NCBI RefSeq assembly: GCF_036563385.1
Contig: NZ_DATCML010000015.1
Location: 203,616 to 267,615 of the forward strand
Direction: 5' to 3'
DNA from: Phenylobacterium sp.
GTDB taxonomy: Bacteria; Pseudomonadota; Alphaproteobacteria; Caulobacterales; Caulobacteraceae
Length of the DNA: 64,000 nt
Under the pieces are notes generated by a model, which did not search any database, was not told where the DNA came from, and saw nothing but the letters and a program-made list of their open reading frames with translations. The first letter of the stretch is position 1, and every line of letters begins with the position of its first letter. Shown in pieces: positions 3,153-51,136 of the stretch. A program made the position numbers and the translations under genes.

Positions 3153-3524
3153 GTGATGGACATGGACGACGCCGCATCCCTGGATCCGAAGACGACGACC
3201 CCGCTGACCCAGGCGGAGCTCGACGTCCTGACGGACCAGCTCATCGACAAGCTCAAGACGGTGTACGACCCGGAGATCCCGGTCGACATCTACGAGCTCG
3301 GCCTGATCTATAAGGTCGACGTCTCCGACGACAAGGACGTGGTCATCGACATGACCCTGACGGCGCCCGGCTGCCCGGTGGCCGGCGACATGCCCGGCTG
3401 GGTCGAGGACGCGGTGAAGGAGATCCCCGAGATCCGCTCGTGCAAGGTCGAGCTGGTGTTCGATCCGCCGTGGGACCCGTCGCGGATGTCCGACGAGGCC
3501 AAGCTGCAGCTGAACATGTTCTGA
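3153..3524 (+). CDS. DUF59/MIP18-family Fe-S assembly protein (SufT-like)
   Basis: 123 aa. YDPEIPVDIYELGLIY and TLTAPGCPVAG are hallmark DUF59 motifs. Start is GTG 3153 or ATG 3156. Located inside the suf operon. Confidence 0.85.
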   Translation: MMDMDDAASLDPKTTTPLTQAELDVLTDQLIDKLKTVYDPEIPVDIYELGLIYKVDVSDDKDVVIDMTLTAPGCPVAGDMPGWVEDAVKEIPEIRSCKVELVFDPPWDPSRMSDEAKLQLNMF

Positions 3525-3919
3525 TGGCCGAGCTCTCCGTCACCCCCCAACCCCGCGCCCGCCGCCCCCGGCCCAAGGTGGTCAGCCTGACCGACCGCGC
3601 CGCCGAACGCGTCCGCGAGATCATGGCCAAGGCCGAGCAGCCGTACGTCGGCCTGCGCGTGGGCGTGAAGAACGGCGGCTGCGCCGGCCAGGAGTACGTC
3701 CTGCAGTACGCCGAGGCGGCCAACCCCATGGACGAAGTGGTCGAGGACAAGGGCGTCACCATCCTGGTGGAGCCCAAGGCCGTGCTGTTCCTGATCGGCA
3801 CGGAGATCGACTACGAGGTGAACAAGCTCTCGGCCAAGTTCGTGTTCCGGAACCCCAACGAAACCGACGCGTGCGGCTGCGGCGAGAGCGTCACCATCCA
3901 GCCCGCCACGGACATCTGA
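3524..3919 (+). CDS. Iron-sulfur cluster insertion protein, IscA/SufA/ErpA (HesB) family
   Basis: ATG 3524 overlaps the preceding TGA (TGATG). The C-terminal NPNETDACGCGESV is the HesB/IscA Cys motif, and GCAGQEY supplies the first Cys. The longer 3440 start lies inside the upstream gene and was rejected. Confidence 0.88.
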   Translation: MAELSVTPQPRARRPRPKVVSLTDRAAERVREIMAKAEQPYVGLRVGVKNGGCAGQEYVLQYAEAANPMDEVVEDKGVTILVEPKAVLFLIGTEIDYEVNKLSAKFVFRNPNETDACGCGESVTIQPATDI

Positions 3920-8545: not shown

Positions 8546-9267
8546 GCGCCGTCCGCCGCGCGGCCCGCGGGCTGCGCGCCCAGCCAGCGGAAGGCGCTAC
8601 GCAGGAAGGCGGCGCCGTCCGCCTGCACGGGCGCCCCGTGGGCCATCACCACCTTCTCGGCGGGCCAGTCGAGGATACGCGCCAGCGAGTCCCGCGCCGC
8701 ACGCCGGCGCACGAAGCCGGTCCGGAATTTCCGCGGGACCTGCGGCTCCGCAGCGGTCATCAGGTCCAGCCCCGCGACCAACGCCCGCCAGCCGCGGAAC
8801 CAGCCGCCGGGGAAATGCTGGATCAGGTCGGTGAACAGCACCGTGCGGCTGCGCCGGTGGAAGAACACCACCTCCGTGGTGATCAGGTTGCCGTGCACCG
8901 GAGCCTGGTCGATCTCGTCCGCCCAGTCGGGCGGCGCCGTCTCCCCGAGGTCGCCGTCGAACGCGAGGTCCGGTCGCTTGCCGCGCAGCCCGGGCGCGGC
9001 CCACAGCGCCGCCGCGGGGTAGGCCGCCTTCCACTCGGCGAGGAACAGGTGGTGCAGCGAATTGGGGGCGGCGAGCCAGCGCACGTCGCCCAGCGCCTCC
9101 ACCTCAACCCGCAGCGCCGCGTCCAGCGCGACCGGCGACCAGACGAACAGCCGCCGCCCGCCGAGCCGGATCACCGCCATCCGGGTGGGATAGGCGAACC
9201 CCGCCACCGCCGCCTGCGGCCCGTCCGCCAGCCAGATTTCCTCGCCGAACGGCTGAAGCCTCGCCAT
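8542..9267 (-). CDS. DUF4336-like (metallo-beta-lactamase-fold-like) protein
   Basis: Starts at MARLQPFGEEIWLADGP (ATG 9267). LAAPNSLHHLF...YPAA..WAAPGL resembles the DUF4336 pattern from memory. The 387-aa extension in the ORF track is low-complexity Ala/Arg sequence and was rejected. Confidence 0.6.
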   Translation of the reverse strand: MARLQPFGEEIWLADGPQAAVAGFAYPTRMAVIRLGGRRLFVWSPVALDAALRVEVEALGDVRWLAAPNSLHHLFLAEWKAAYPAAALWAAPGLRGKRPDLAFDGDLGETAPPDWADEIDQAPVHGNLITTEVVFFHRRSRTVLFTDLIQHFPGGWFRGWRALVAGLDLMTAAEPQVPRKFRTGFVRRRAARDSLARILDWPAEKVVMAHGAPVQADGAAFLRSAFRWLGAQPAGRAADGA

Positions 9268-9421
9268 CTGCGCCCCCCAGAACCCGGCCAGCATGAGCGC
9301 GCCAGCCCCGCTTGGGAAGTCGGCCGGGGCCCGGCCCCACGCCCTCGCCCTTACCTCCGCGGTAATCGACCGGCCTCCGCCGCCGCCCGATGCTCGCGCC
9401 ATCAGCCACGGAGGACTTCCC

Positions 9422-34823: not shown

Positions 34824-35360
34824 CTACTTCTTCTTCATCGACTGCACGGCGGCCAGTGTCTCGGACACGTGCTCGTTGGGGTCCATCTTGGAATAGGCGT
34901 GGACCACCTGGCCGGAGCGCGAAATCACGTAGGAGGTGCGGTCGGACCAATCGGGCTTGGCTGCCAGGATCGCGTCGTACTGCCGGGCGATCTTGGCGCC
35001 TGGATCGGCCGCCACCGGGAACTTGCCCGAGCACTTGTCGGTGTCCGCGGAGATCTGCTGCAGCTTGTCCAGGTTGCCGGCCGTGACGCCAATCACCGTC
35101 GCCCCGGCGGCGGTGAACTTCGGCATCGCGTCAGCGAACATCTTCGCCTCGAGATTGCAGCCCTTGGTGTCTGCGGCGGGGAAGAAGTACAGCACCACCG
35201 GCCCCTTTTTGCGCGCCTGGGCGAGCGAGAAGGTGAGGGACTTGCCGGCCTGGAAGCCCGGGGCGGTGAAGTCGGGAGCCTTGTCCCCGGCCTTCAAGGC
35301 GGCGAAGGCGGGCGTGGCGGCGAGCGCGGTCAGCGCGGCGAGGCAGGCAAGGCGTTTCAT
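34824..35360 (-). CDS. Secreted peroxiredoxin (AhpC/TSA, Bcp/PrxQ-like)
   Basis: 178 aa. Signal peptide ending PAFA. DKAPDFTAPG and the peroxidatic Cys context FFPAADTKGCNLE. Confidence 0.8.
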   Translation of the reverse strand: MKRLACLAALTALAATPAFAALKAGDKAPDFTAPGFQAGKSLTFSLAQARKKGPVVLYFFPAADTKGCNLEAKMFADAMPKFTAAGATVIGVTAGNLDKLQQISADTDKCSGKFPVAADPGAKIARQYDAILAAKPDWSDRTSYVISRSGQVVHAYSKMDPNEHVSETLAAVQSMKKK

Positions 35361-35430: not shown

Positions 35431-36735
35431 CTAGAAGAACAGGAAGTTGCCGTCGCTGAGGGCGGAGAGCTTCACGTTCTGCAAGGTGAGGGCATTCTGG
35501 GCGTCGAACGTGATCACCACGTTGGCGCCGACCTGCTGGGCGTGGGCCTTCAGGTCATCAAAGCTGCCGAACATCGCCGGCGACATCTGGATCACCTCGT
35601 TCTTCAGGTCGAAGTCGGTGATCGTGTCGCGGCCGAAGTCCTTGCCGAAGATGAAGTAGTCGGGGCTGCCGCCTCCGGTGATGCGGTCGTCGCCGGCGCC
35701 CCCCGCAAGGGTGTCAGGGCTGTTGCCGCCGTCGAGCGTGTCGTTGCCGGCCTCGCCGTCTAGCCAGTCGCTGCCGTTCCCGCCGATCAGCTTGTCCGCG
35801 CCGGCCCCGCCGCACAGCGAGTCCTTGCCATTGGCGCCGTCCACCGTGTCGGCGCCGCCGCCGCCACAAAGCGTGTCGCCGCTGTTCCCGCCCCAGATGC
35901 GTTCCCCGCGGGCGGTGCCCATGATGATCTGCGGGTGGTTTCCGCCGACGATGTCGGGACCGACGCCCACCGGGTTCAGCGTCACCGAGGCCGTCTTGGT
36001 CGCCGAATAGTCCGTCCCGTCGAAGGCGCGGTACTGGAACGACACGACCCGCGCCGCCGTGATGTCCTCGTCGCCGGCCAGCGGCTGGACGTAGAACTTG
36101 CCGTCGGCGTCGACGACCACTCCCGCAGGGAGAGTCCCGACAGGTTGGAAGGTGAGGGCTTGGCCGTCCGCGTCGGTGGCCAGCAGCTGGCCTGTGAACG
36201 TCTGCCCGGCCAGGATAGCGCCGCTGAACGGCTGCGCGACCGGCGCGGTGTTCAGGGTGAGCGCCAGGTTGTCGAACGCGCCCCAGCCCGTTCCGCCAAC
36301 CGTGAACCACTCAAGCCGCACCAGCCCGGCGCCGAAGCCCCCGGGCAGGTTCACCGTCTGGAACCCGTCGATGCTGTCGGTGGTGAACTCGTGGGTGACG
36401 ACGTTGCCGTCGGACTTCACGCCGGTGAAGTAATAGGTCAGCACGGAGGTGCCGGTCACCGGCGCCGTCCCGTTCCAGCCTTCGAAGCTGAAGCCGTTCA
36501 CCTGGACGGATGTTGCGCCGAACGCGCCGCCCGCCACAGGTTTCACCAGTACGGTGTCGCCGGTGTACTGGTTGATCAGATAGCCGCCGGTCCCGAGGTT
36601 GTTCACCTGCGCCCGGTTCCAGAACGCGTCGTTGAACCCGTTCTGCTGGGTCGTCAGGGTCGAGAACTGGAAGCCCTGCTCCGAATAGACCGGGAACAGG
36701 CCGGCCGGCACGCTCTCGAATTGGATGGTCGGCAT
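35431..36735 (-). CDS. RTX-type calcium-binding secreted protein with cadherin/Ig-like middle region
   Basis: 434 aa with no signal peptide. Five or more GGxGxD nonapeptide repeats (GGNSGDTLCGGGGADTVDGANGKDSLCGGAGADKLIGGNGSDWLDGEAGNDTLDGG). The C-terminal pattern VITFDAQNALTLQNV...FLFF is typical of type I secretion substrates. Confidence 0.8.
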   Translation of the reverse strand: MPTIQFESVPAGLFPVYSEQGFQFSTLTTQQNGFNDAFWNRAQVNNLGTGGYLINQYTGDTVLVKPVAGGAFGATSVQVNGFSFEGWNGTAPVTGTSVLTYYFTGVKSDGNVVTHEFTTDSIDGFQTVNLPGGFGAGLVRLEWFTVGGTGWGAFDNLALTLNTAPVAQPFSGAILAGQTFTGQLLATDADGQALTFQPVGTLPAGVVVDADGKFYVQPLAGDEDITAARVVSFQYRAFDGTDYSATKTASVTLNPVGVGPDIVGGNHPQIIMGTARGERIWGGNSGDTLCGGGGADTVDGANGKDSLCGGAGADKLIGGNGSDWLDGEAGNDTLDGGNSPDTLAGGAGDDRITGGGSPDYFIFGKDFGRDTITDFDLKNEVIQMSPAMFGSFDDLKAHAQQVGANVVITFDAQNALTLQNVKLSALSDGNFLFF

Positions 36736-36845: not shown

Positions 36846-37847
36846 CTAGTTGTAGGCGACAGTCACATTGAACGTGCCGGTATAGGCGCCGTTCTGGGTG
36901 CTGGCGGAGATCGGGAACGAGCCGCCGACAAAGAAGCTGTAGGTCCCGCTGTTGCCCAGGATCGAACTCAACAGCGGGCTGGCGACCAGGTTGTTGTTGG
37001 TCGTCACCGTCAAAGAGGAGGCGTTTGGACCCGTCATGGGGAAGGTGGCCGGGACGGTGATCGACAAGGTCTGACCGCCCTCGCCAGTGACGGTGTAGCT
37101 CGCACGTTTGGCGATCGGCAGGTTCAGCCAGGCCGTACCGGGCGGGAAGCTCTTGGAAGCGTCTGCGGCCGCCAGCGCGATCGTGCCGCTGCCGCTCGAC
37201 GGCTTTACGATGCGCCCGAACTCCAGGTCACTGTTCTTGGTCAGTGAGATCGAACGGAAGACGGTGGCCACCGCCTCGCCGCTGTCGCCCTGCGAGCCGT
37301 TCGGCGTGTTGGGGGCATCATCCGCCCAGACGTAGAACGACGATTGCGCCGCGCCGGTGGGCGACCCGGAGGTGTCCCCGCCGATCGGGAAGTCCATGCC
37401 CACGTAGAAGGTCTTCGAGCTGTTCTTGCCGATCGGTCCAATGCGGAAGTTGATCGGGTTCGTTCCGGTCGGGGAGACCGTCAACGACGCCGTGCCCATC
37501 GAGACGGTAAAGTTGGTCAGCGTCCCGCCCCGACCCGACGTCGTCCCGGAGCCGATGCGGATGTTGACGCTCTTGGTGTTGCACGCGCCCTCGTTGCCGC
37601 AGCTGATCGTCACCATGGGCCGGGTGCTCCCCGTGCTCACCCGCGCGCCGGAGCCGCTCAACTTGGTCACCGTTCCGGTGCTGGCCGAGATCCGGAAGGT
37701 CGTCGTACCAGAGGCGGCAGAGGCCACCTCGCCGAGGTTGGGACTGCTGGAGGGTACGCCGACGCCATAGGTCTGCGCCCCGGCGGCGCTCGCGGAAAAG
37801 GCGAGAAGCCCGGCAATCAAGAGTTGCGATATACTGGCGCGTCGCAT
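36846..37847 (-). CDS. Two-domain secreted fimbrial tip-like subunit (N-terminal unique domain plus C-terminal DUF4402-like pilin domain)
   Basis: ATG 37847. Signal peptide ending SAAGAQ. The C-terminal half (ISLTKNSDLEFGRIV...ASYTVTGEGGQTLSITVP...GAYTGTFNVTVAYN) parallels the two small subunits. The N-terminal half is unrelated and has a Cys pair (ISCGNEGAC). Confidence 0.65.
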   Translation of the reverse strand: MRRASISQLLIAGLLAFSASAAGAQTYGVGVPSSSPNLGEVASAASGTTTFRISASTGTVTKLSGSGARVSTGSTRPMVTISCGNEGACNTKSVNIRIGSGTTSGRGGTLTNFTVSMGTASLTVSPTGTNPINFRIGPIGKNSSKTFYVGMDFPIGGDTSGSPTGAAQSSFYVWADDAPNTPNGSQGDSGEAVATVFRSISLTKNSDLEFGRIVKPSSGSGTIALAAADASKSFPPGTAWLNLPIAKRASYTVTGEGGQTLSITVPATFPMTGPNASSLTVTTNNNLVASPLLSSILGNSGTYSFFVGGSFPISASTQNGAYTGTFNVTVAYN

Positions 37848-37905
37848 GGTCGTGCTCAATAACACTTTCGGCTGACCGATTGCACCGGAAGATACCGCGG
37901 CAAAG

Positions 37906-40728
37906 TTACTGAGAGTCTTCGCTCTTCTGCTGGCCTGCGGGCTCGGCCGTAGGAGGGGCGGGCATCTCTCCCTCGGACGCTGCGGCCGCGGGGCGGGGAG
38001 CGAACTTCACCTCGGCGTGCACGTCGGGTGCGAAGCCGCCATCGCCCTTGATCTCGATGGTGGGGGTCTCCACCAGCGTCATCCGGAGCCGCCTGGCCTG
38101 GTCGGGATCGAGTTCCAAACGGTACTTGCCGATCGGCAGGTTCTGGAAGTTGGCCGAGCCATCGAACTCGGTATTCGCTTCTGCGGTGTAGCCGTTGTCG
38201 CCGACGAGCCGGACCTGGGCGGCGGACAGCCCAACCAACGTCCCGTCCGGCCGGCGCAGGTTTATGCTGACCAGCACCTCGCCGGTCGGCTTCATGGGGT
38301 AGCGGACGGTGGTGAAGCTGCCGGCCCGGGGTGAGAACTGAATTGTGCTTGGCGGCGCCTGCACCTGGGTGTTTTCGACCTCGTCGAGACCGACGAGAAT
38401 GCGGCTGGTCGGGCCCGCGCCGACGCCGGTGACGAAGGCTCGGCCGTCGGGACCGGTGCGAATCTTGGTCTCGGCGCCTTCCAGCGTGACGTTGGGCACC
38501 GCCACGTCGTCGCTGTCGAAGATGCCGTTTCCGTTCTTGTCCAGGAACGCCTCGAACAACAGGCTGCCGCCGGAGCCGGGGCCGGGCCGCGTCACCTGAT
38601 AGCGCCCAAGGGCGGGGTTATAGCCCAGCCCGAAGTTCAGCTGGGCGCCAAGCCGCCAGCTCTGGTCGGCGTTGTTGTAGTCGCCGTTGATCGACAGGTC
38701 CGCGAACCGCAGTTTGAAGATGCTGGCGGCTGTCAGGTTGAAGCTCGAGACATCGTCCAGCGCCTGGCCCACCCCGAACCGCAGGGCCACGGTCTCGCTG
38801 ATGTCGCGATCCGCGGTGATGGCCAGCGAGCGGGCCCGCAGCTCGGGCAGGATCTCGAAGTCGAGGGTGGAGCGCAGCTGCCACTTGTAGCCCCTGAAGG
38901 TGGAGCCCGCGAAATAGCCGTTCAGCCGCTGGACGGTCTGCTGTGGGGTGATGTTGCGCTCGTACTCCACACCCGCCGAGATCAGGAAGCTCGACGCCGT
39001 CGTGGAGGCGCGCAGCGAGGAGGCGATGTCGATAAGCCCGTCGGCATACTCGTTGCGCAAGGTGCGGACCGACACGGGAACGACCTGGCCGCGGAACTGC
39101 AGGTTGCCGTCGAAGGTGAGTTCGCTACGACGCAGCATGGCGCGGCTGATGTCGGCGCCGGGGCCGTTCTCGTCGAGGAAGCCGCCCTGGAATTCGGCGT
39201 GCCGCAGCACTGTGGACAGGCCAAAGACATTGCCGGCCATGCCCAGCGACACGGCCGAACTGCCGCGGCTGTCGTAGGCGAGGTCGAGTTGGGTGGCGAA
39301 GCCGAAGAGGGAGGTCCGCGCGCCGAGGGTGTAGAGCTGCCGATAGTCGTCGTCGTCCAACGGCAGGTAGGCCGCGGCGCCGGCGATTGTCAGGGTGGAC
39401 GTCAGGCCATAGTTGGCCGAGACAACGGCGCGCAGCCCGCCGCGCCCCGGGTTCACCCGCTCCTCCGGCAGCGGCTTCTGGAGCAGCAGCAGCGGCTCCT
39501 CCTGCTGGACCACCCCCAGCTCGAACGTGGCCTCGCCGCGTCGCAGCACGCCGCCGCCGACGTTGATGATGCGCGTGTTCTCGCTGCGCTCGCCGCGCGG
39601 CCCGTAGGTCACCACCCGGACCACGTTGATGCCCTGGCTCAGCGGCACATTGAGGAATTCGTAGCGCCCCTTGGCGGGCGTGTTCTGGCCACTGCGCAGG
39701 ACGTCGTTGACGTACAGCTCCACGTCGTAGCCAAGCGGAAGTTCGCCGCGCAGGTCGATACGGTTGAAGATGTTCGTCTGGTCGAGCGGGACCGTGGACA
39801 GCATGAAGCCGCGGCCGCCGAGGCTGCGAGGGCCGAGCGACAGACCCGGCGTGAAGACGTCGCCAACGGCGATGGTGCGCGCCTTGAGCGGCCCGAGGAG
39901 CCCCCCGCCTACCGAGCGTCGCTCGAAGACGAAACGGGCGGTGGAGGGGTCCCCGCTCTCGTTCGAGCCGAGATAGCCCTGGAACCCGGTGTACAGCAGG
40001 TCGGCGCCGACGCGGATGTCGTAGCGCAACGGGAAGCGGTTATCGGACTCGATGCCGGCCCCGATGGCCATATCGAAAGCCGGCAGGCTCAACAGCCGGT
40101 AGGGCGTTTCGACCTTGAGAACCTCGTCCTTCTGCTGGAAGCCCTCGAAGTTGTCGCGCTTGCGCGCAAGACGCTGGATCCGGCCCTGGATCGGCAGCAG
40201 CTCCGTGGCGGTGATCTTCAACGCCAGGCTCTCGGGATCGACCTGCAGCGTCAGGGGCAGCAGCCTTTGGAGCGCCGAGGCCCGGATGTAGATCTCGGTG
40301 TCCGTGACCGCCACGTCGCTGGCCGCCAGCGGCACATTGCGCGGACCGTCCTTGGCGGTGCCGGTGGCGAGGTCGACGACCAGGGAGCGGCGGGCTTCGC
40401 CCAGGCGGCCGATGATGCGCCGCTCGCTGGGCAGCACCTCCACGTCCATCTCGAGCAACCGGGTCAGTTCGCCGACCGGGAGGAGTGGGTCTTCCGGCGC
40501 GTCGTAAGCGCTCAGACCATCTGTGAGCGTCAGCTCGTCGAGATCGACCGAGAACAGCAGCAGGGAGGCCGGATCGAGGACCGGCGAGGCGGCGGCAGGT
40601 TGTGCGGCTTCAGGCGGCGCGCTCGCGGCCGGTGCGAGCGGCTCGGCGGCCGCCCCGGGGGAGGCGCGGATGATGGCAAGCGCGGCGGTGGCAGACCACG
40701 CGGCGCACCTACGACGCCTGTTTCGCAA
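37906..40728 (-). CDS. Usher-like outer-membrane assembly protein (940 aa)
   Basis: Signal-like N-terminus. The segment GYDVELYVNDVLRSGQNTPAKGRYEFLNVPLSQGINVVRVVTYGPRGE resembles the usher plug/middle-domain pattern. Long amphipathic beta-strand region. Positioned directly after a PapD-like chaperone. The TTG start at 40728 overlaps the chaperone gene by 20 nt. Confidence 0.6.
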   Translation of the reverse strand: MRNRRRRCAAWSATAALAIIRASPGAAAEPLAPAASAPPEAAQPAAASPVLDPASLLLFSVDLDELTLTDGLSAYDAPEDPLLPVGELTRLLEMDVEVLPSERRIIGRLGEARRSLVVDLATGTAKDGPRNVPLAASDVAVTDTEIYIRASALQRLLPLTLQVDPESLALKITATELLPIQGRIQRLARKRDNFEGFQQKDEVLKVETPYRLLSLPAFDMAIGAGIESDNRFPLRYDIRVGADLLYTGFQGYLGSNESGDPSTARFVFERRSVGGGLLGPLKARTIAVGDVFTPGLSLGPRSLGGRGFMLSTVPLDQTNIFNRIDLRGELPLGYDVELYVNDVLRSGQNTPAKGRYEFLNVPLSQGINVVRVVTYGPRGERSENTRIINVGGGVLRRGEATFELGVVQQEEPLLLLQKPLPEERVNPGRGGLRAVVSANYGLTSTLTIAGAAAYLPLDDDDYRQLYTLGARTSLFGFATQLDLAYDSRGSSAVSLGMAGNVFGLSTVLRHAEFQGGFLDENGPGADISRAMLRRSELTFDGNLQFRGQVVPVSVRTLRNEYADGLIDIASSLRASTTASSFLISAGVEYERNITPQQTVQRLNGYFAGSTFRGYKWQLRSTLDFEILPELRARSLAITADRDISETVALRFGVGQALDDVSSFNLTAASIFKLRFADLSINGDYNNADQSWRLGAQLNFGLGYNPALGRYQVTRPGPGSGGSLLFEAFLDKNGNGIFDSDDVAVPNVTLEGAETKIRTGPDGRAFVTGVGAGPTSRILVGLDEVENTQVQAPPSTIQFSPRAGSFTTVRYPMKPTGEVLVSINLRRPDGTLVGLSAAQVRLVGDNGYTAEANTEFDGSANFQNLPIGKYRLELDPDQARRLRMTLVETPTIEIKGDGGFAPDVHAEVKFAPRPAAAASEGEMPAPPTAEPAGQQKSEDSQ

Positions 40729-41629
40729 GGAGTTTGCCCGGAGATGTGTCGTCGTCGGTGAACGTGACCTCGAGCTTCTCTCCGGCGGCCAGCGGCCTGT
40801 TCAGCGGGATCCGCAGGGTGCGCCGGCCGACCTCCGGGTACACGCCGACGCCGCGGGCGAGGCCGATCACCTCGCTGTTCTTTGCGCCGGTGGGGCGGAT
40901 CTCGATGTTGCCGAACAGCGAGTTGGTCCCAAGTCGGACGATGTCGAACACCGCCACGGCGGTGCGCCGCGGCGTGGTCTGGCCCTGCGGCGTGACTTCG
41001 GCGTACTCAAGGCGCACGTTCTCGATCCCGGCGCGCACGTCGGCGTCGCCGGTGCGGATGATGGCCGGGATGCTGAGGCCGAACACCGAATTGATCTGGA
41101 AGCGGAGCTCGTTGGGGCCGACGCCCGCTGCGGCCTCCGCCGTAAGGCCCGCGTCGCGCGGCGGGATCGTGGTGATGGTCAGGTGGCTGCGGTACTCGGC
41201 CGCCGCGGAGTCCTGCGGATTGGCGCGCAGGCGGATCGTCTGGCCCTGGCCGGGCGCAAGCGTCACCCGCCGGGGCGACACCAGCAGCATGGACGAGGCC
41301 GACTTTACCTGCTCGGCGTAAGGCTTGGCCTCAGGACGGCTCTCGGCGTCGGAGAGCGCGACGATCTGGCCGTCCGGCAGCATGGCGCGGTCCACGAGGC
41401 TGACGTCGAACGTCGCCGCCGCATTGCCCTGGTTATAGATGTAGACCGTCGCGCTCCGCCGGTTGCGGTCGAAGGTCACCCGCTTGGGGGAGATGTTCAG
41501 GTTGGCGCCGACGGTGGTGACATTGGCCGTCACGGCAGGCGTGGCGGGGGCGGCGGGCTGGGCCGGAGCCTGCGGCGCGGCGAGGACCGCAAGGGCGGCG
41601 ATCGCGACGGAGAGGGAGATCCGGCTCAA
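40709..41629 (-). CDS. PapD-like periplasmic fimbrial chaperone
   Basis: The TTG start (41629) overlaps the TGA of the upstream gene (aaTTGAgcc). Signal peptide SRISLSVAIAALAVLAAPQAPA. LNISPKRVTFDRNRRSATVYIYNQGNAAATFDVSLVD matches the PapD_N pattern (x-SP-x-R-V-x-F ... V-x-V-x-N). Two Ig-like halves. The 464-aa ORF in the track was rejected. Confidence 0.65.
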   Translation of the reverse strand: MSRISLSVAIAALAVLAAPQAPAQPAAPATPAVTANVTTVGANLNISPKRVTFDRNRRSATVYIYNQGNAAATFDVSLVDRAMLPDGQIVALSDAESRPEAKPYAEQVKSASSMLLVSPRRVTLAPGQGQTIRLRANPQDSAAAEYRSHLTITTIPPRDAGLTAEAAAGVGPNELRFQINSVFGLSIPAIIRTGDADVRAGIENVRLEYAEVTPQGQTTPRRTAVAVFDIVRLGTNSLFGNIEIRPTGAKNSEVIGLARGVGVYPEVGRRTLRIPLNRPLAAGEKLEVTFTDDDTSPGKLLAKQAS

Positions 41630-42150
41630 TTGTACTGGACCACGACTACCAGCAGGCCCTCGTAGGCGCCCGGCTCCAGCCGATCGGCCGAGGCCAGCGA
41701 CAGCGCGCCCCCGACGTTCACGCTCATGCTGTTGGAGCCCATGACGGCGCCGCCCAGGATCACGCCGCCGTCTTGGAGGCCGTATTCGGCGCGGGTGTTG
41801 GTTCTGACGGTCAAGGCTTCGGTCCCCCCGTTGCGGACGACCGTGAAGCTTTCGGGCACGGCCATCGACAATGCGTCGCCAACCTCGCTCCGAATGGTTA
41901 AGGTGGCGTTGCCTACACCAGCGGTTGTACCACCGGTTCCCGCGGAAGGCACGGTCCCAGCGAATGCGGCATTTGGCGACACCGCCGTGGCCGTAACGCT
42001 GGGGAGCACCATGGGCGTGATGACCTGGATGCTCGCGCTCTGAACGATGCGTCCGCCCACCTTGGCGTCGGCGCGGCTGAGCGCGAAGGCCTGGGCGCAG
42101 CACGCCAGGGCCGCCAGGCCGACACCGATCATGAGGGGGGCGCGGTTCAT
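41626..42150 (-). CDS. Secreted DUF4402-like fimbrial subunit (minor, 174 aa)
   Basis: Signal peptide ending AQAFA. Ser/Thr/Gly/Val-rich beta protein. The C-terminus GAYEGLLVVVVQYN shares the G-x-Y-x-G-x7-Y-N motif with the other two subunits. Confidence 0.65.
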   Translation of the reverse strand: MNRAPLMIGVGLAALACCAQAFALSRADAKVGGRIVQSASIQVITPMVLPSVTATAVSPNAAFAGTVPSAGTGGTTAGVGNATLTIRSEVGDALSMAVPESFTVVRNGGTEALTVRTNTRAEYGLQDGGVILGGAVMGSNSMSVNVGGALSLASADRLEPGAYEGLLVVVVQYN

Positions 42151-42223
42151 GCGTCGAACTTAGCGGTGACGGGTTTACCGAGGCTGAACGGCGCGCGCTC
42201 AGCCCCGGCGAGCCCGTCGTCGC

Positions 42224-42796
42224 TTAGTTGTAGGTGACCGTCAGCGACATGGTCCCGGTGTACGGACCCGGGGTGGTTTCGTTGGTGACGTTGAACGATC
42301 CGCCCGCGTACAGCAGCTGGGTGGCCGCCGTGAACTGGGTGCCCGGAAGGACGCCGGCGGTGCCCGAGAGGCTGCCGCTGTCGACCGAGAAGGCCGGCGT
42401 GAAGGAGATGTTCTGGCCGGAGGCGGAGCCCGAGCCCGTCAGGTTGAACGCCGTAGTCGAGCCGCTGAGGGTGTAGGCGCGGCCGCCGTCACCGGTGATG
42501 GTGAACTGACCGCGGCTGCCCTGGGCCTGCACGAGCGCCGTACCGCCGACAATCGACACCGGGGTGGTGGTGTTGGTCGTGCTCAGCACCACCTGCGAGG
42601 TGGTGGCGGTGTTCGGCCGAGTGATCGTGCCGAAGCTCACGTCGTTGTTCTTCGTGATGGCGATCGGCTGAATGATGCTGGCGCCCACGGTCGCGCTGGC
42701 CGAGGAGGTCGACTGCTGCGCGGCGGCGGTGGTGGCGAGGCTCGCCAGGACGGCGGCGCTGCCGGCGGCGATGAGGAGGTTCCGAAGGGTAGTCAT
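42224..42796 (-). CDS. Secreted DUF4402-like fimbrial subunit (first gene, candidate major subunit, 190 aa)
   Basis: ATG 42796. Signal peptide ending TTAAAQQ. IIQPIAITKNNDVSFGTI...GQFTITGDGGRAYTL...GPYTGTMSLTVTYN fits the DUF4402 pattern as I recall it. First gene of the operon. Confidence 0.7.
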   Translation of the reverse strand: MTTLRNLLIAAGSAAVLASLATTAAAQQSTSSASATVGASIIQPIAITKNNDVSFGTITRPNTATTSQVVLSTTNTTTPVSIVGGTALVQAQGSRGQFTITGDGGRAYTLSGSTTAFNLTGSGSASGQNISFTPAFSVDSGSLSGTAGVLPGTQFTAATQLLYAGGSFNVTNETTPGPYTGTMSLTVTYN

Positions 42797-43417
42797 GTTC
42801 GCCCCTGGCGTGAGAGTTGTCTGTTGAACGCGTGAACTTGTCTTGCTGGAGACTTGCAGGTGTTCGAGGGAGCGCCGCAGCGAGCGGCGAAAACCTTTGT
42901 AACCTTTGGTTGCAGGTCGCCCATTTAACCGACGATTATCCATGGCCCTCTACGGCGGCGGTTGCCCAGTGTCAAGAATGAAGCTCGGCAGTAACCACAA
43001 TAGTGGGGCGTCAAGGTCAAAGTCCCGATCTGGAACACTGTCCCGGACGCCCACCAGCTTTTGCAAGACACGTGCGCACAAGGAGAGGAAGAGCTTTGTC
43101 GCCCTCTTAGTGCCCGCATGTTTTGCGGGCCCGGACGAGAGCCGCCTAATACTTCTGCGCTCAGCTTCGAGTGGCGCCGGAATCGCGCTCGGCAACTCCC
43201 CGGTGTAGAAGTATAGTGAATGGCGTACCGAAGTTCGTCGAATCCTGCTCGCCGCCGACCCAGGGTTGACCGAGGTAGTATTCGGTCCGCGACAATCCGC
43301 CACGCGCAGTTGGATATTCTTGGTGAGCAGGTCAGATCGCGACCCAAATGTGGCGCCGACCTTCGCTGTAACGCCTCGTACGGCCGAGTTTGCTTAACGT
43401 AATGTGAAGCTTGATGG
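42797..43417 (-). promoter_or_regulatory. 620-bp lower-GC non-coding leader/promoter region upstream of the fimbrial operon
   Basis: No convincing ORF in any frame. Hand count of 42961-43160 gives 115/200 G+C, against 67/100 in a fabD sample. Tandem AACCTTTG repeats at 42892-42899 and 42901-42908. Hairpin gcccgca-tgttt-tgcgggc at about 43113-43131. Confidence 0.45.
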
Positions 43418-44497
43418 CTAGGCGGTGGGATCGACGACGATCTTTACGTGGGCTTCCGGATCGCCGAGCGCGTCGAATGCGCCGGCCACCTCGGAGAGGC
43501 TGACGCGACCGGTGACCAGGTGCGAGACATCGACAACGCCCTCGGCCAGCCTGCGCAGCGTCAGGGCGAACTCCTCCGGCGTGTAGCCGAAGACGAAGGT
43601 GAGCTCGATTTCCTTGGTGATGGCGATGGAGGGCTCGATGCGGTCGGTCTCCATGCAGACGCCGGCGACGACGATCTGCGCGCCAGCCGGGGCCGCCTCG
43701 ATCAGATTCTGCAGCACGCCCGGGGCGCCCACGCATTCAAAAACCACAGGACGGGCGAAGCCGCCGCCCATCATGCGGACCATCTGTTGCGCGGCGCGGG
43801 CCTTGGGCACGCCGAAAGCCTCCCAGCGGCCGTGCGGATCTTCCACCGCCGGATCGACGAGGACGTCGGCGCCGAGGCGCTCCGCCGCGGCTCGGCGGCG
43901 GGGCGAGAAGTCCGCGGCGATCACGGGGCCGTGGCCCTGGGCTTTCAGCGCGGCGATAACCGCGAGCCCCACGGGCCCGCAGCCCACCACCAGGCACACG
44001 GACTTGGGCTCGAGCCGCGCCTTGGCCACGGCGTGCAGTCCGACGGCGAAGGGCTCGGTCATCGCCGCGTGATCGGTGGGGAGCCCGTTTGGGACTTCCA
44101 GCAGCATGGCCTCAGAGAGCAGCATGCATTCTGAGAAGCCGCCGGGCAGCCGGTTCGAAAAGCCGAGCATCTCCACGCCCGAGGCGGTCATGGTCACGGG
44201 GATGCTCACCACCCGCGCGCCGGCCTTCAGCCTGCGCGGGGTCCCGGGTCCGAAGTCGAGCACCTCGGCGCAGAACTCATGGCCGAACACCGTGTCGGCC
44301 GAGGGGTCGAAGCCGTTGTCCCCGCCGCCGGCCCGACGGGTCAGCTCGATCATGTGCTCCATGTGGTGCAGCGCATGCAGGTCCGAGCCGCAGATGCCGC
44401 AGGCGAGGGTGCGGACCAGCGCCTGTCCCTCCGCGGGCTGCAGCTCCGGAATCTCGTCGCAGACCAGCCGCTTCTCGCGCCGCACGACCGCTCTCAT
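43418..44497 (-). CDS. Zinc-dependent alcohol dehydrogenase (MDR family)
   Basis: 359 aa. Zinc ligand motifs GICGSDLH and GHEFCAEV. Rossmann motif VVGCGPVGLAV. Confidence 0.88.
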   Translation of the reverse strand: MRAVVRREKRLVCDEIPELQPAEGQALVRTLACGICGSDLHALHHMEHMIELTRRAGGGDNGFDPSADTVFGHEFCAEVLDFGPGTPRRLKAGARVVSIPVTMTASGVEMLGFSNRLPGGFSECMLLSEAMLLEVPNGLPTDHAAMTEPFAVGLHAVAKARLEPKSVCLVVGCGPVGLAVIAALKAQGHGPVIAADFSPRRRAAAERLGADVLVDPAVEDPHGRWEAFGVPKARAAQQMVRMMGGGFARPVVFECVGAPGVLQNLIEAAPAGAQIVVAGVCMETDRIEPSIAITKEIELTFVFGYTPEEFALTLRRLAEGVVDVSHLVTGRVSLSEVAGAFDALGDPEAHVKIVVDPTA

Positions 44498-50621: not shown

Positions 50622-51136
50622 TCACGCCGCCGCCGCGCCCCTGCACAAATTTCAGGCTGCGGCCGCTTCGCGCGCAACGTTTCCCCTGCGCGAGTTAGAA
50701 ATTCCATCAAGCGCGACAGTTTTGTGTCCTTGCGGCGCCCTTACGTCAGCGCCCAAGCTGGCCGGGCTCTCGCGGGAGAGACCGGGCTTCGCGCCCGGCG
50801 CTGAAGGCGCAACCGCCCCGGAAACGCTCAAGCAGAAGGACCGCCAGAGCCTCTAAACGCTGGAAAGCAGGGCGGCCTGGCCGCCCTCGCCGAAGGAGCA
50901 AGGCGGGCGAGGCCCTCCGAAATCTCTCAGGCGCCAAGGACAGCGGGGGCGACGCCGGGGCCGGACGAGGCCTGCCGTCTCGCTGCGCCGTCGCCTCACC
51001 GTCGACAGGCCAGGACCGCCCAAGGGTGACCGCACGGACGGTCGCTCGGCGGTCGGCGGAGCACCCGGCGGATCTTGGGGGACCGCTCCGGCGGTCGTGC
51101 GACAGCAGCGCCGGGGGCCGGCGCGAGGGGGTTAGT
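50622..51136 (+). promoter_or_regulatory. 515-nt highly structured leader upstream of a TonB-dependent receptor (possible riboswitch or attenuator, class unresolved)
   Basis: No credible ORF. Perfect hairpins at 50782-50798 (ccgggc-ttcgc-gcccgg) and 50870-50886 (gggcggc-ctg-gccgccc). An alternative pairing, 50761-50787, overlaps the first hairpin. The segments gcgctgaaggcgcaaccg and ggccggacgaggcctgcc only loosely resemble cobalamin-riboswitch core and B12-box. Confidence 0.35.

Follow-up and report, generated by a model that had tools for sequence, protein, structure and literature searches.

A very divergent chaperone-usher-type operon in Phenylobacterium with DUF4402 proteins as putative fibre subunits

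Can a compact operon built on small secreted DUF4402 proteins encode a surface fibre, and to which of the known fibre systems would such a fibre be related? The question is raised by five genes at 36846-42796 of a 64,000-nucleotide stretch of Phenylobacterium sp. DNA (contig NZ_DATCML010000015.1, positions 203,616 to 267,615; hereafter the window), which lie on the minus strand in the same orientation and comprise 190, 174, 306, 940, and 333 codons in the list of open reading frames (ORFs). A reading made from the letters of the window without database searches (the sequence-only reading) had described a chaperone-usher-like fimbrial operon, and the five co-oriented genes, their sizes, the two gene overlaps, and the C-terminal motifs that it reported are all present. 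The operon most probably encodes a complete and highly divergent chaperone-usher fimbrial system that uses DUF4402 proteins as its fibre subunits. In sequence-profile comparisons, the system appears as a deep branch, with the archaic (sigma, Csu/CupE/SCPU) pili as the closest relatives that can still be recognised, and it stands outside the sequence models of those pili.

Predicted usher and chaperone

The fourth gene (37906-40728, minus strand) encodes the 940-aa outer-membrane protein, which is 100% identical to an NCBI 'hypothetical protein' and whose Pfam matches, to SdrD_B, CarboxypepD_reg, and SpaA only, are all sub-threshold and lie near residue 850 (SdrD_B and CarboxypepD_reg at 832-875). 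The protein was modelled with AlphaFold2 on a 53-sequence alignment (mean pLDDT 80.5, pTM 0.62), and the strands of the model were assigned with DSSP. The model consists of a signal peptide, an N-terminal domain (~55-175), a 24-strand barrel (~217-704) made of 6 + 18 long strands, a plug in the form of a six-strand domain (323-390, VELYVND..VVRVVTYGPRGE) placed between strands 6 and 7, and two C-terminal beta domains (~722-910), the last of which is transthyretin/CarboxypepD_reg-like. PapC and FimD are built to this same plan of 24 barrel strands with the plug inserted after the sixth. When the model was compared with the PDB by Foldseek, the best 18 matches were all FimD or PapC, with E-values of 8e-30 to 1e-11; the alignment to FimD (3rfz_B) covered 912 columns at 12% identity (E = 8.4e-30), the match to PapC (7lhg_C) had an E-value of 4.6e-24, barrel-only entries scored at ~1e-16, and the next folds after the ushers (TIE, LptD, and TonB-dependent receptors) followed from ~1e-7. 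The usher-like segment noticed in the sequence-only reading is therefore part of what, at the level of predicted fold, is a full usher, one that lies outside the Usher family at the level of sequence models.

Profile-profile comparisons were made with hhalign against five archaic (sigma) operons, including csuAB-A-B-C-D-E, and the fim operon of E. coli; reversed and column-shuffled controls all remained below 1%. The usher family aligned with the five sigma ushers at 93.7% (E = 1.9e-7, 456 columns). The sigma ushers matched FimD at 99.5%, whereas the usher family of the window did so at 0.7%. Among database names, the relatives of the window usher appear as 'hypothetical', 'MSCRAMM family protein', 'collagen binding domain-containing protein', or 'carboxypeptidase regulatory-like domain-containing protein', and three relatives in UniRef are named 'fimbrial biogenesis outer membrane usher protein'. 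A distant relative (P0445) gave a sub-threshold match to the Pfam Usher model (E = 0.007).

The usher family varies in its terminal regions. In one sub-lineage (P0409, P0416, and ~35 other representatives), the ushers are 1,150-1,470 aa long and carry a Pro/Ala-rich, low-complexity N-terminal extension of 260-590 aa ahead of the usher N-terminal domain. These long relatives were considered as chaperone-usher fusions, which was ruled out, as the extension is Pro/Ala-rich and has no PapD match; it could be a periplasm-spanning tether or the product of a miscalled start. Of the pair P0445 (from a Kiloniellaceae metagenome-assembled genome) and P0472, one usher relative bears C-terminal SPOR and LysM domains and the other is fused to POTRA_2/ShlB, possibly through a gene-call fusion. 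In a Pseudoalteromonas operon (L088), SPOR-domain genes lie on both sides (3413-3898 and 8715-9353). These observations hint at a recurrent tie of the usher family to peptidoglycan binding.

The third gene (40709-41629, minus strand) encodes the 306-aa PapD-like protein from a TTG start. This TTG overlaps the TGA of the preceding gene by 4 nt (AATTGAGC), and the usher TTG at 40728, which is the first in-frame start of its ORF, lies 20 nt within the chaperone gene. The protein matches PapD_N in Pfam at 28.1 bits (cut-off 23) over residues 106-160 only; the PapD_N-like core claimed from the sequence thus exists, at these residues and not at the N-terminal strings that had been quoted for it. Against the sigma chaperones, the family reached 96.4% in local alignment (E = 1.1e-9) and 97.3% in global alignment, which, together with the PapD_N match, bears out the assignment of the operon to the chaperone-usher type. 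Its homologues are named 'P pilus assembly chaperone PapD' by JGI and 'fimbrial biogenesis chaperone' in UniRef. Archaic chaperones anchor the subunit carboxylate through Arg89 and Tyr196, both validated by mutation, and Arg174, and not through the classical Arg/Lys pair (PMC4654587). In the window chaperone family, Arg147 and Tyr264 are invariant (61/61) and Arg245 is found in 51 of 61 sequences; Arg147 aligns with CsuC Arg89 within the significant alignment of domain 1, while Tyr264 and Arg245 align with CsuC Tyr196 and Arg174 only in a low-confidence, forced global alignment.

DUF4402 subunits and the conserved operon

Three products of the operon contain a DUF4402 domain (PF14352), a family to which Pfam assigns no function. 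The scores of 54.2 bits for subunit 1, 31.9 bits for subunit 2, and 92.3 bits for the tip protein are all above the gathering score of 25.2 bits. Subunit 1 (42224-42796, minus strand, 190 aa), the product of the first gene, begins with a Sec signal peptide followed by a Ser/Thr/Ala-rich N-terminal extension (..SASATVGASIIQ..) ahead of the DUF4402 domain at residues 45-189; its C-terminus reads GPYTGTMSLTVTYN, and orthologues occupy the same operon position in related loci. Given the first position of its gene and the occurrence of that gene in every locus, subunit 1 probably serves as the major pilin that forms the shaft. Subunit 2 (41626-42150, minus strand, 174 aa) lacks the L-x-FG motif and ends in ..GxYEGLLVVVVQYN (GAYEGLLVVVVQYN). 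It represents a distinct orthologous type that occurs in part of the loci only and always immediately before the chaperone, and is for these reasons probably a minor or adaptor subunit.

The fifth gene (36846-37847, minus strand) encodes 333 aa from an ATG, and an alternative GTG start is possible 18 nt upstream. In its product, which ends in GAYTGTFNVTVAYN, the DUF4402 domain (residues 200-332) is C-terminal and stands behind an N-terminal domain that belongs to no Pfam family. This N-terminal domain is predicted to be a beta-sandwich with a Cys83/Cys89 pair, of which Cys89 is invariant and Cys83 is found in at least 90% of the aligned homologues. An AlphaFold2 model built on 76 homologues (pLDDT 94.2) matched, by Foldseek, a CfaB-CfaB fusion (8.8e-6), FimH (1.4e-5), CfaE-CfaB (4.1e-5), CsuE (7.1e-5), PapG (1e-3), and AggA (1.6e-3); Gram-positive pilins and integrin Ig domains were also among the matches. 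Taken with the two-domain architecture and the position of the gene behind the usher, these matches are in keeping with a tip adhesin and agree with the two-domain, tip-like protein that had been suggested.

The DUF4402 assignment extends to the relatives of the operon: 40 of 40 diverse upstream subunits sampled from them match DUF4402 above the gathering score. SCPU (PF05229) was matched by none of the three window subunits and by one of the 40 relatives, at E = 0.26, and the Fimbrial domain (PF00419) was matched neither in the window subunits nor in the 40 relatives. Among 234 DUF4402 sequences, 233 have an aromatic residue at position -2 from the C-terminus, followed by a single N, Q, E, or D. 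Glycine is found at -14 in 83 of 114 upstream subunits and in 119 of 120 tips, and also at -10, so that the conservation of Gly(-14) and Tyr(-2) seen in the three window proteins holds strongly across the family. The mature part is free of cysteine in 100 of the 114 upstream subunits, and ahead of the Pfam domain the upstream subunits share a conserved segment that resembles a strand.

The view that the subunits are of DUF4402 type and belong to neither SCPU nor Fimbrial is correct by Pfam. They are not, as that view might imply, unrelated to Csu/SCPU: DUF4402 and SCPU subunits aligned nearly over their full length at 95.6% (E = 1.1e-8), and at 80.8% (E = 1.3e-5) once the signal peptides were removed. 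The trimmed alignment comprises the N-terminal strand, L-x-FG, VGG/IYG, and the C-terminal GxYx[G/D]t.vtv.Y. A search of the PDB with the DUF4402 profile matched no chain. The CryoSeek pond fibrils TLP-1a/b were considered as candidates and dropped, as no PDB chain matched the DUF4402 profile and the fibrils are absent from the tip Foldseek matches listed.

The distribution of the operon was surveyed by scanning one genome per species with the usher alignment, which yielded 80 loci, and by running hidden Markov models (HMMs) built from homologues on the six-frame ORFs of these loci, which come from Phenylobacterium, Caulobacter, Sphingomonas, Novosphingobium, Rhizorhabdus, Sphingobium, and other genera. 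Every locus with enough flank contains one to three DUF4402 genes, then a chaperone, then an usher, and in ~70 loci of Caulobacterales and Sphingomonadales a two-domain DUF4402 gene follows directly after the usher. This arrangement is far beyond chance because the same order is found in essentially all of the 80 loci with enough flank. A divergent clade (L072-L080, ~25% usher identity), which includes the gammaproteobacterium Alkalilimnicola ehrlichii, keeps the subunit-chaperone-usher core; a two-domain tip gene after the usher was detected in none of L072-L079, and L087 and L088 are likewise without it. In a collection of plasmid replicons, the same core was found on a Polaromonas plasmid, a Pseudoalteromonas replicon, and a Novosphingobium plasmid, where the order in the replicon annotation is DUF4402, DUF4402, 'molecular chaperone', and 'carboxypeptidase-like regulatory domain-containing protein'. 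DUF4402 genes accordingly travel with chaperone and usher partners in alpha-, beta-, and gammaproteobacteria. The usher family is large, with at least 1,826 clusters at 50% identity: when 1.84 billion representative proteins were searched with its profile, 1,826 relatives were recovered at E<=1e-30 and 5,029 at E<=1e-3. A true sigma (SCPU) operon is present on plasmid pLA3 of Novosphingobium pentaromativorans (L083), and DUF4402-type operons are present in other Novosphingobium replicons and genomes (H26, L051, L053, L068, and L089, the last being Novosphingobium sp. ES2-1 p2); both kinds thus coexist within one genus, with no mutual replacement.

A variant form of DUF4402 gene lies further upstream in the divergent Sphingomonadales clade L072-L079 (e.g., L073, 4741-5259); its product carries a QCRLC motif straight after the signal peptide and ends in GDFRGRIxIVADYQ/R. 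In the window, the genes for subunits 1 and 2 are separated by 73 nt, and those for the usher and the tip protein by ~58 nt. The former spacer region can fold into a hairpin (42157-42229, minus strand) with a 14-bp core stem at ~42177-42209 and no U-tract, at -47.3 kcal/mol (z = -5.6 versus shuffles). In related loci, the hairpins 3' of the subunit genes are unexceptional against the genome background (median z of -0.4); a conserved attenuator, which was considered, is therefore not clearly indicated, and the hairpin of the window may be an element for differential expression or mRNA stability. The non-coding region upstream of the operon (42797-43417, ~620 nt) has a lower G+C content (~0.62) and presumably contains its promoter and regulatory region. 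Its minus strand has no sigma-70-like site, its repeats are short and at chance level, and nothing relevant emerged when the operon and this region were scanned for promoters, terminators, Rfam families, and repeats.

In Phenylobacterium genomes, the operon occupies a fixed chromosomal site between Zn-dependent alcohol dehydrogenase-like and peroxiredoxin-like genes, and the flanking genes of this site in the window are at 34824-35360 and 43418-44497 (both minus strand). At 35431-36735 (minus strand), 110 nt downstream of the tip gene, lies a gene whose 434-aa product combines a Big_9/cadherin-like domain with four RTX calcium-binding repeats. Among the closest loci, 13 have one or two homologues of it immediately after the tip gene; other loci have none and carry a peroxiredoxin gene at that place. 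The RTX protein may be a co-travelling adhesin. A tandem glycine riboswitch at 50763-50945 (plus strand), whose two aptamers exceed the gathering score at 62.8 and 45.8 bits, is unrelated to the operon.

Proposed assembly and alternative explanations

The analysis shows the gene content, the fold-level identity of the usher and the tip protein in their predicted models, the remote sigma homology of all three component types, and the conserved synteny. With characterised chaperone-usher systems as the guide, a course of assembly can be proposed. All five proteins, each of which begins with a signal-peptide-like segment as read from the sequence, would be exported through Sec, and the chaperone, with two Ig domains, would take up the subunits in the periplasm by donor-strand complementation, in which the C-terminal carboxylate of the subunit would be anchored by Arg147 and Tyr264 in an archaic-type, two-domain anchor. 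The chaperone-subunit complexes would then dock on the N-terminal domain of the usher, the plug would exit the 24-strand barrel, and the two-domain tip protein would be the first to enter. Subunit 2, as an adaptor, and then many copies of subunit 1, as the shaft, would follow by donor-strand exchange, with the Ser/Thr/Ala-rich N-terminal strand of each incoming subunit displacing the chaperone strand. We infer donor-strand exchange, the order of incorporation, the roles of the subunits, and an adhesive function by analogy with known systems. This scheme reveals no new mechanism, and the operons represent a populous branch rather than a new class in the mechanistic sense.

Several observations weigh against a complete chaperone-usher system. 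The 940-aa protein has no match to Usher (PF00577), PapC_N, or PapC_C in Pfam even at E<=1, and NCBIfam offers no usable match for any of the five proteins, the usher included. No chaperone-usher protein was retrieved from the PDB by sequence, whether the queries were the single proteins or HMM profiles built for usher, chaperone, tip, and subunits; the matches were spurious ones to Bap, SdrD, and antibodies only. The PapD_N match of the chaperone is marginal (28 bits) and partial, and because its second domain has no family match, the equivalences proposed for Tyr264 and Arg245 are of low confidence. The Foldseek matches of the tip are moderate (E 1e-5 to 1e-3, TM ~0.3), and the tip has a segment resembling an N-terminal extension (EAVATVFRS) directly ahead of its pilin domain. 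The surface fibre itself is predicted from the genes and the modelled structures.

The operon could, on one alternative account, be an ordinary archaic (sigma) member like Csu or CupE, with DUF4402 as a Pfam split of SCPU and no separate lineage. Its gene order is identical to that of sigma operons, hhalign ties its usher, chaperone, and subunit to their sigma counterparts, the motifs GxYx[GD]..VTV.[YF] and L-x-FG are held in common, and the putative archaic-type Arg/Tyr anchors are conserved. However, genuine sigma proteins score strongly on Usher, PapC_C, PapD_N, and SCPU, which the proteins of the window type do not; the sigma ushers have the strong match to FimD that the window usher lacks; the C-terminal register is systematically shifted, the aromatic residue being at -2 in 233 of 234 DUF4402 sequences and at -1 in all 16 sigma sequences; mature cysteine is missing from most upstream subunits; the last usher domain is CarboxypepD_reg/SdrD_B-like instead of PapC_C; and both kinds of operon occur within the genus Novosphingobium. 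An ordinary sigma operon is therefore unlikely. Because of the profile-profile links of the usher, chaperone, and subunits, the branch is nevertheless allied to the archaic systems and is not an independent pilus class, so that the distinct lineage envisaged in the sequence-only reading survives as a very divergent branch only.

On a second account, the machine would export the DUF4402 proteins to form a surface coat without fibrils, comparable to the spore coat protein U layer of Myxococcus, or to act as single adhesins. The founding member of SCPU is a spore-coat protein, the tip gene is missing from some divergent loci (L072-L079, L087, and L088), and polymerisation in the window system is itself a proposal by analogy. 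The conserved, strand-like N-terminal extension of the upstream subunits argues the other way, as does the presence of a two-domain tip alongside subunits of a major and a minor type, a set-up typical of fibres; the host genera are not known as spore formers; and Csu and CupE, the structurally characterised sigma relatives, are reported to form pili (PMC9452303, PMC10104325). A coat or single-adhesin exporter is thus a very improbable explanation. The probability is negligible that the 940-aa protein has no relation to ushers and is some other large beta-barrel, for instance a transporter or a protein with a carboxypeptidase regulatory domain, in a neighbourhood without meaning for assembly. 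Such a reading could appeal to the sub-cut-off SdrD_B, CarboxypepD_reg, and SpaA matches and to RefSeq products named 'carboxypeptidase regulatory-like domain-containing protein', 'MSCRAMM family protein', and 'hypothetical'; it is opposed by full-length Foldseek matches to ushers only (E 1e-30 to 1e-11), with TonB-dependent and LptD barrels at least 20 orders of magnitude worse, by the predicted barrel of 24 strands, which has its plug between the sixth and the seventh, by the 93.7% alignment with sigma ushers, and by the overlap of its gene with the chaperone gene and the invariant synteny.

A complete, divergent chaperone-usher system, the preferred explanation, gives DUF4402 a testable function as the pilin of a chaperone-usher-type fibre and brings to light a large family of ushers that present-day pipelines overlook or label wrongly. 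Standard annotation misses the usher and labels the subunits 'DUF4402, function unknown'; in the profile searches made here, PapD_N and DUF4402 were matched, and Usher, SCPU, and Fimbrial were not. The operon is not invisible to annotation, because the chaperone is recognised and a few ushers are named by UniRef. A literature search of 8 million full texts found no mention of DUF4402 or PF14352, and broader searches found only work on the known chaperone-usher classes. No function is assigned to the subunit family, and most of the ushers have so far been nameless or misnamed. Surveys of chaperone-usher diversity built on PF00577 or COG models would leave these systems uncounted, and the adhesion repertoire of soil and freshwater Alphaproteobacteria, including Phenylobacterium, Caulobacter, Sphingomonas, and Novosphingobium, may therefore be underestimated. 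The mixture of archaic-like and classical-like features would be useful for tracing the divergence of donor-strand systems.

The chances are about even that these operons constitute a seventh, unnamed major chaperone-usher clade beside the archaic sigma clade, found mainly in environmental Alphaproteobacteria and also in beta- and gammaproteobacteria, with assembly details of its own. Such a clade would join a sigma-like subunit fold and chaperone anchor to a classical-like C-terminal register, and its usher would be longer, with a transthyretin-like terminal domain. The Pro/Ala-rich or SPOR/LysM extensions of its sub-lineages could tether the machine to peptidoglycan, and its fibres could differ from both the Csu zigzag pili and the Fim/Pap helical rods.

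Comparison with classical and archaic systems

The system resembles the classical Fim/Pap systems in the predicted fold-level architecture of its usher, which is that of FimD and PapC, and in its two-domain tip protein, as in FimH and PapG. It differs from them in that no sequence signal links its proteins to FimD, FimC, FimA, or FimH (hhalign <=5.4%). Since the sigma chaperones and subunits are likewise undetected against single Fim sequences, this negative result is weak for the chaperone and the subunits, and is therefore informative only for the usher. In the fim operon, moreover, the minor subunits and the adhesin come after the usher, behind fimA, fimI, and fimC, and the window subunits have no Fimbrial (PF00419) domain.

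The likeness to the archaic systems is closer. Csu and the other sigma operons have the same order of subunits, chaperone, usher, and a two-domain tip of ~320-340 aa, which agrees with the earlier suggestion that the order mirrors archaic systems. The chaperone Arg and Tyr align with CsuC Arg89 and Tyr196, the Tyr part with low confidence, and the subunits share the N-terminal strand, L-x-FG, and the C-terminal GxYx[D/G]..V.V.aromatic. In contrast, the sequence models separate the two kinds sharply. CsuD scores 131 bits and the L083 Novosphingobium usher 118 bits on Usher, with further matches to PapC_C, whereas the window usher scores nothing, as do the DUF4402-type ushers of Polaromonas and Pseudoalteromonas on both models. 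CsuC scores 72 bits on PapD_N (72-74 for the sigma chaperones), compared with 28 bits for the window chaperone, and CsuA/B and CsuE score 79 and 103 bits on SCPU, whereas the window subunits are assigned to DUF4402 and not to SCPU. The window usher is ~100-150 aa longer, with a last domain that is transthyretin/CarboxypepD_reg/SdrD_B-like instead of PapC_C, and the window chaperone is ~30-60 aa longer. All 16 sigma subunits and tips have cysteine in the mature part, while the upstream DUF4402 subunits are mostly without it. Finally, the aromatic residue of the sigma subunits stands at -1 and their glycine at -13 (15/16), whereas in DUF4402 proteins these positions are -2 and -14, which amounts to one extra residue and places the DUF4402 C-terminus, with its Gly(-14) and penultimate Tyr, in the classical register found in FimA; strand F of CsuA/B is one residue shorter than that of classical subunits (PMC4654587).

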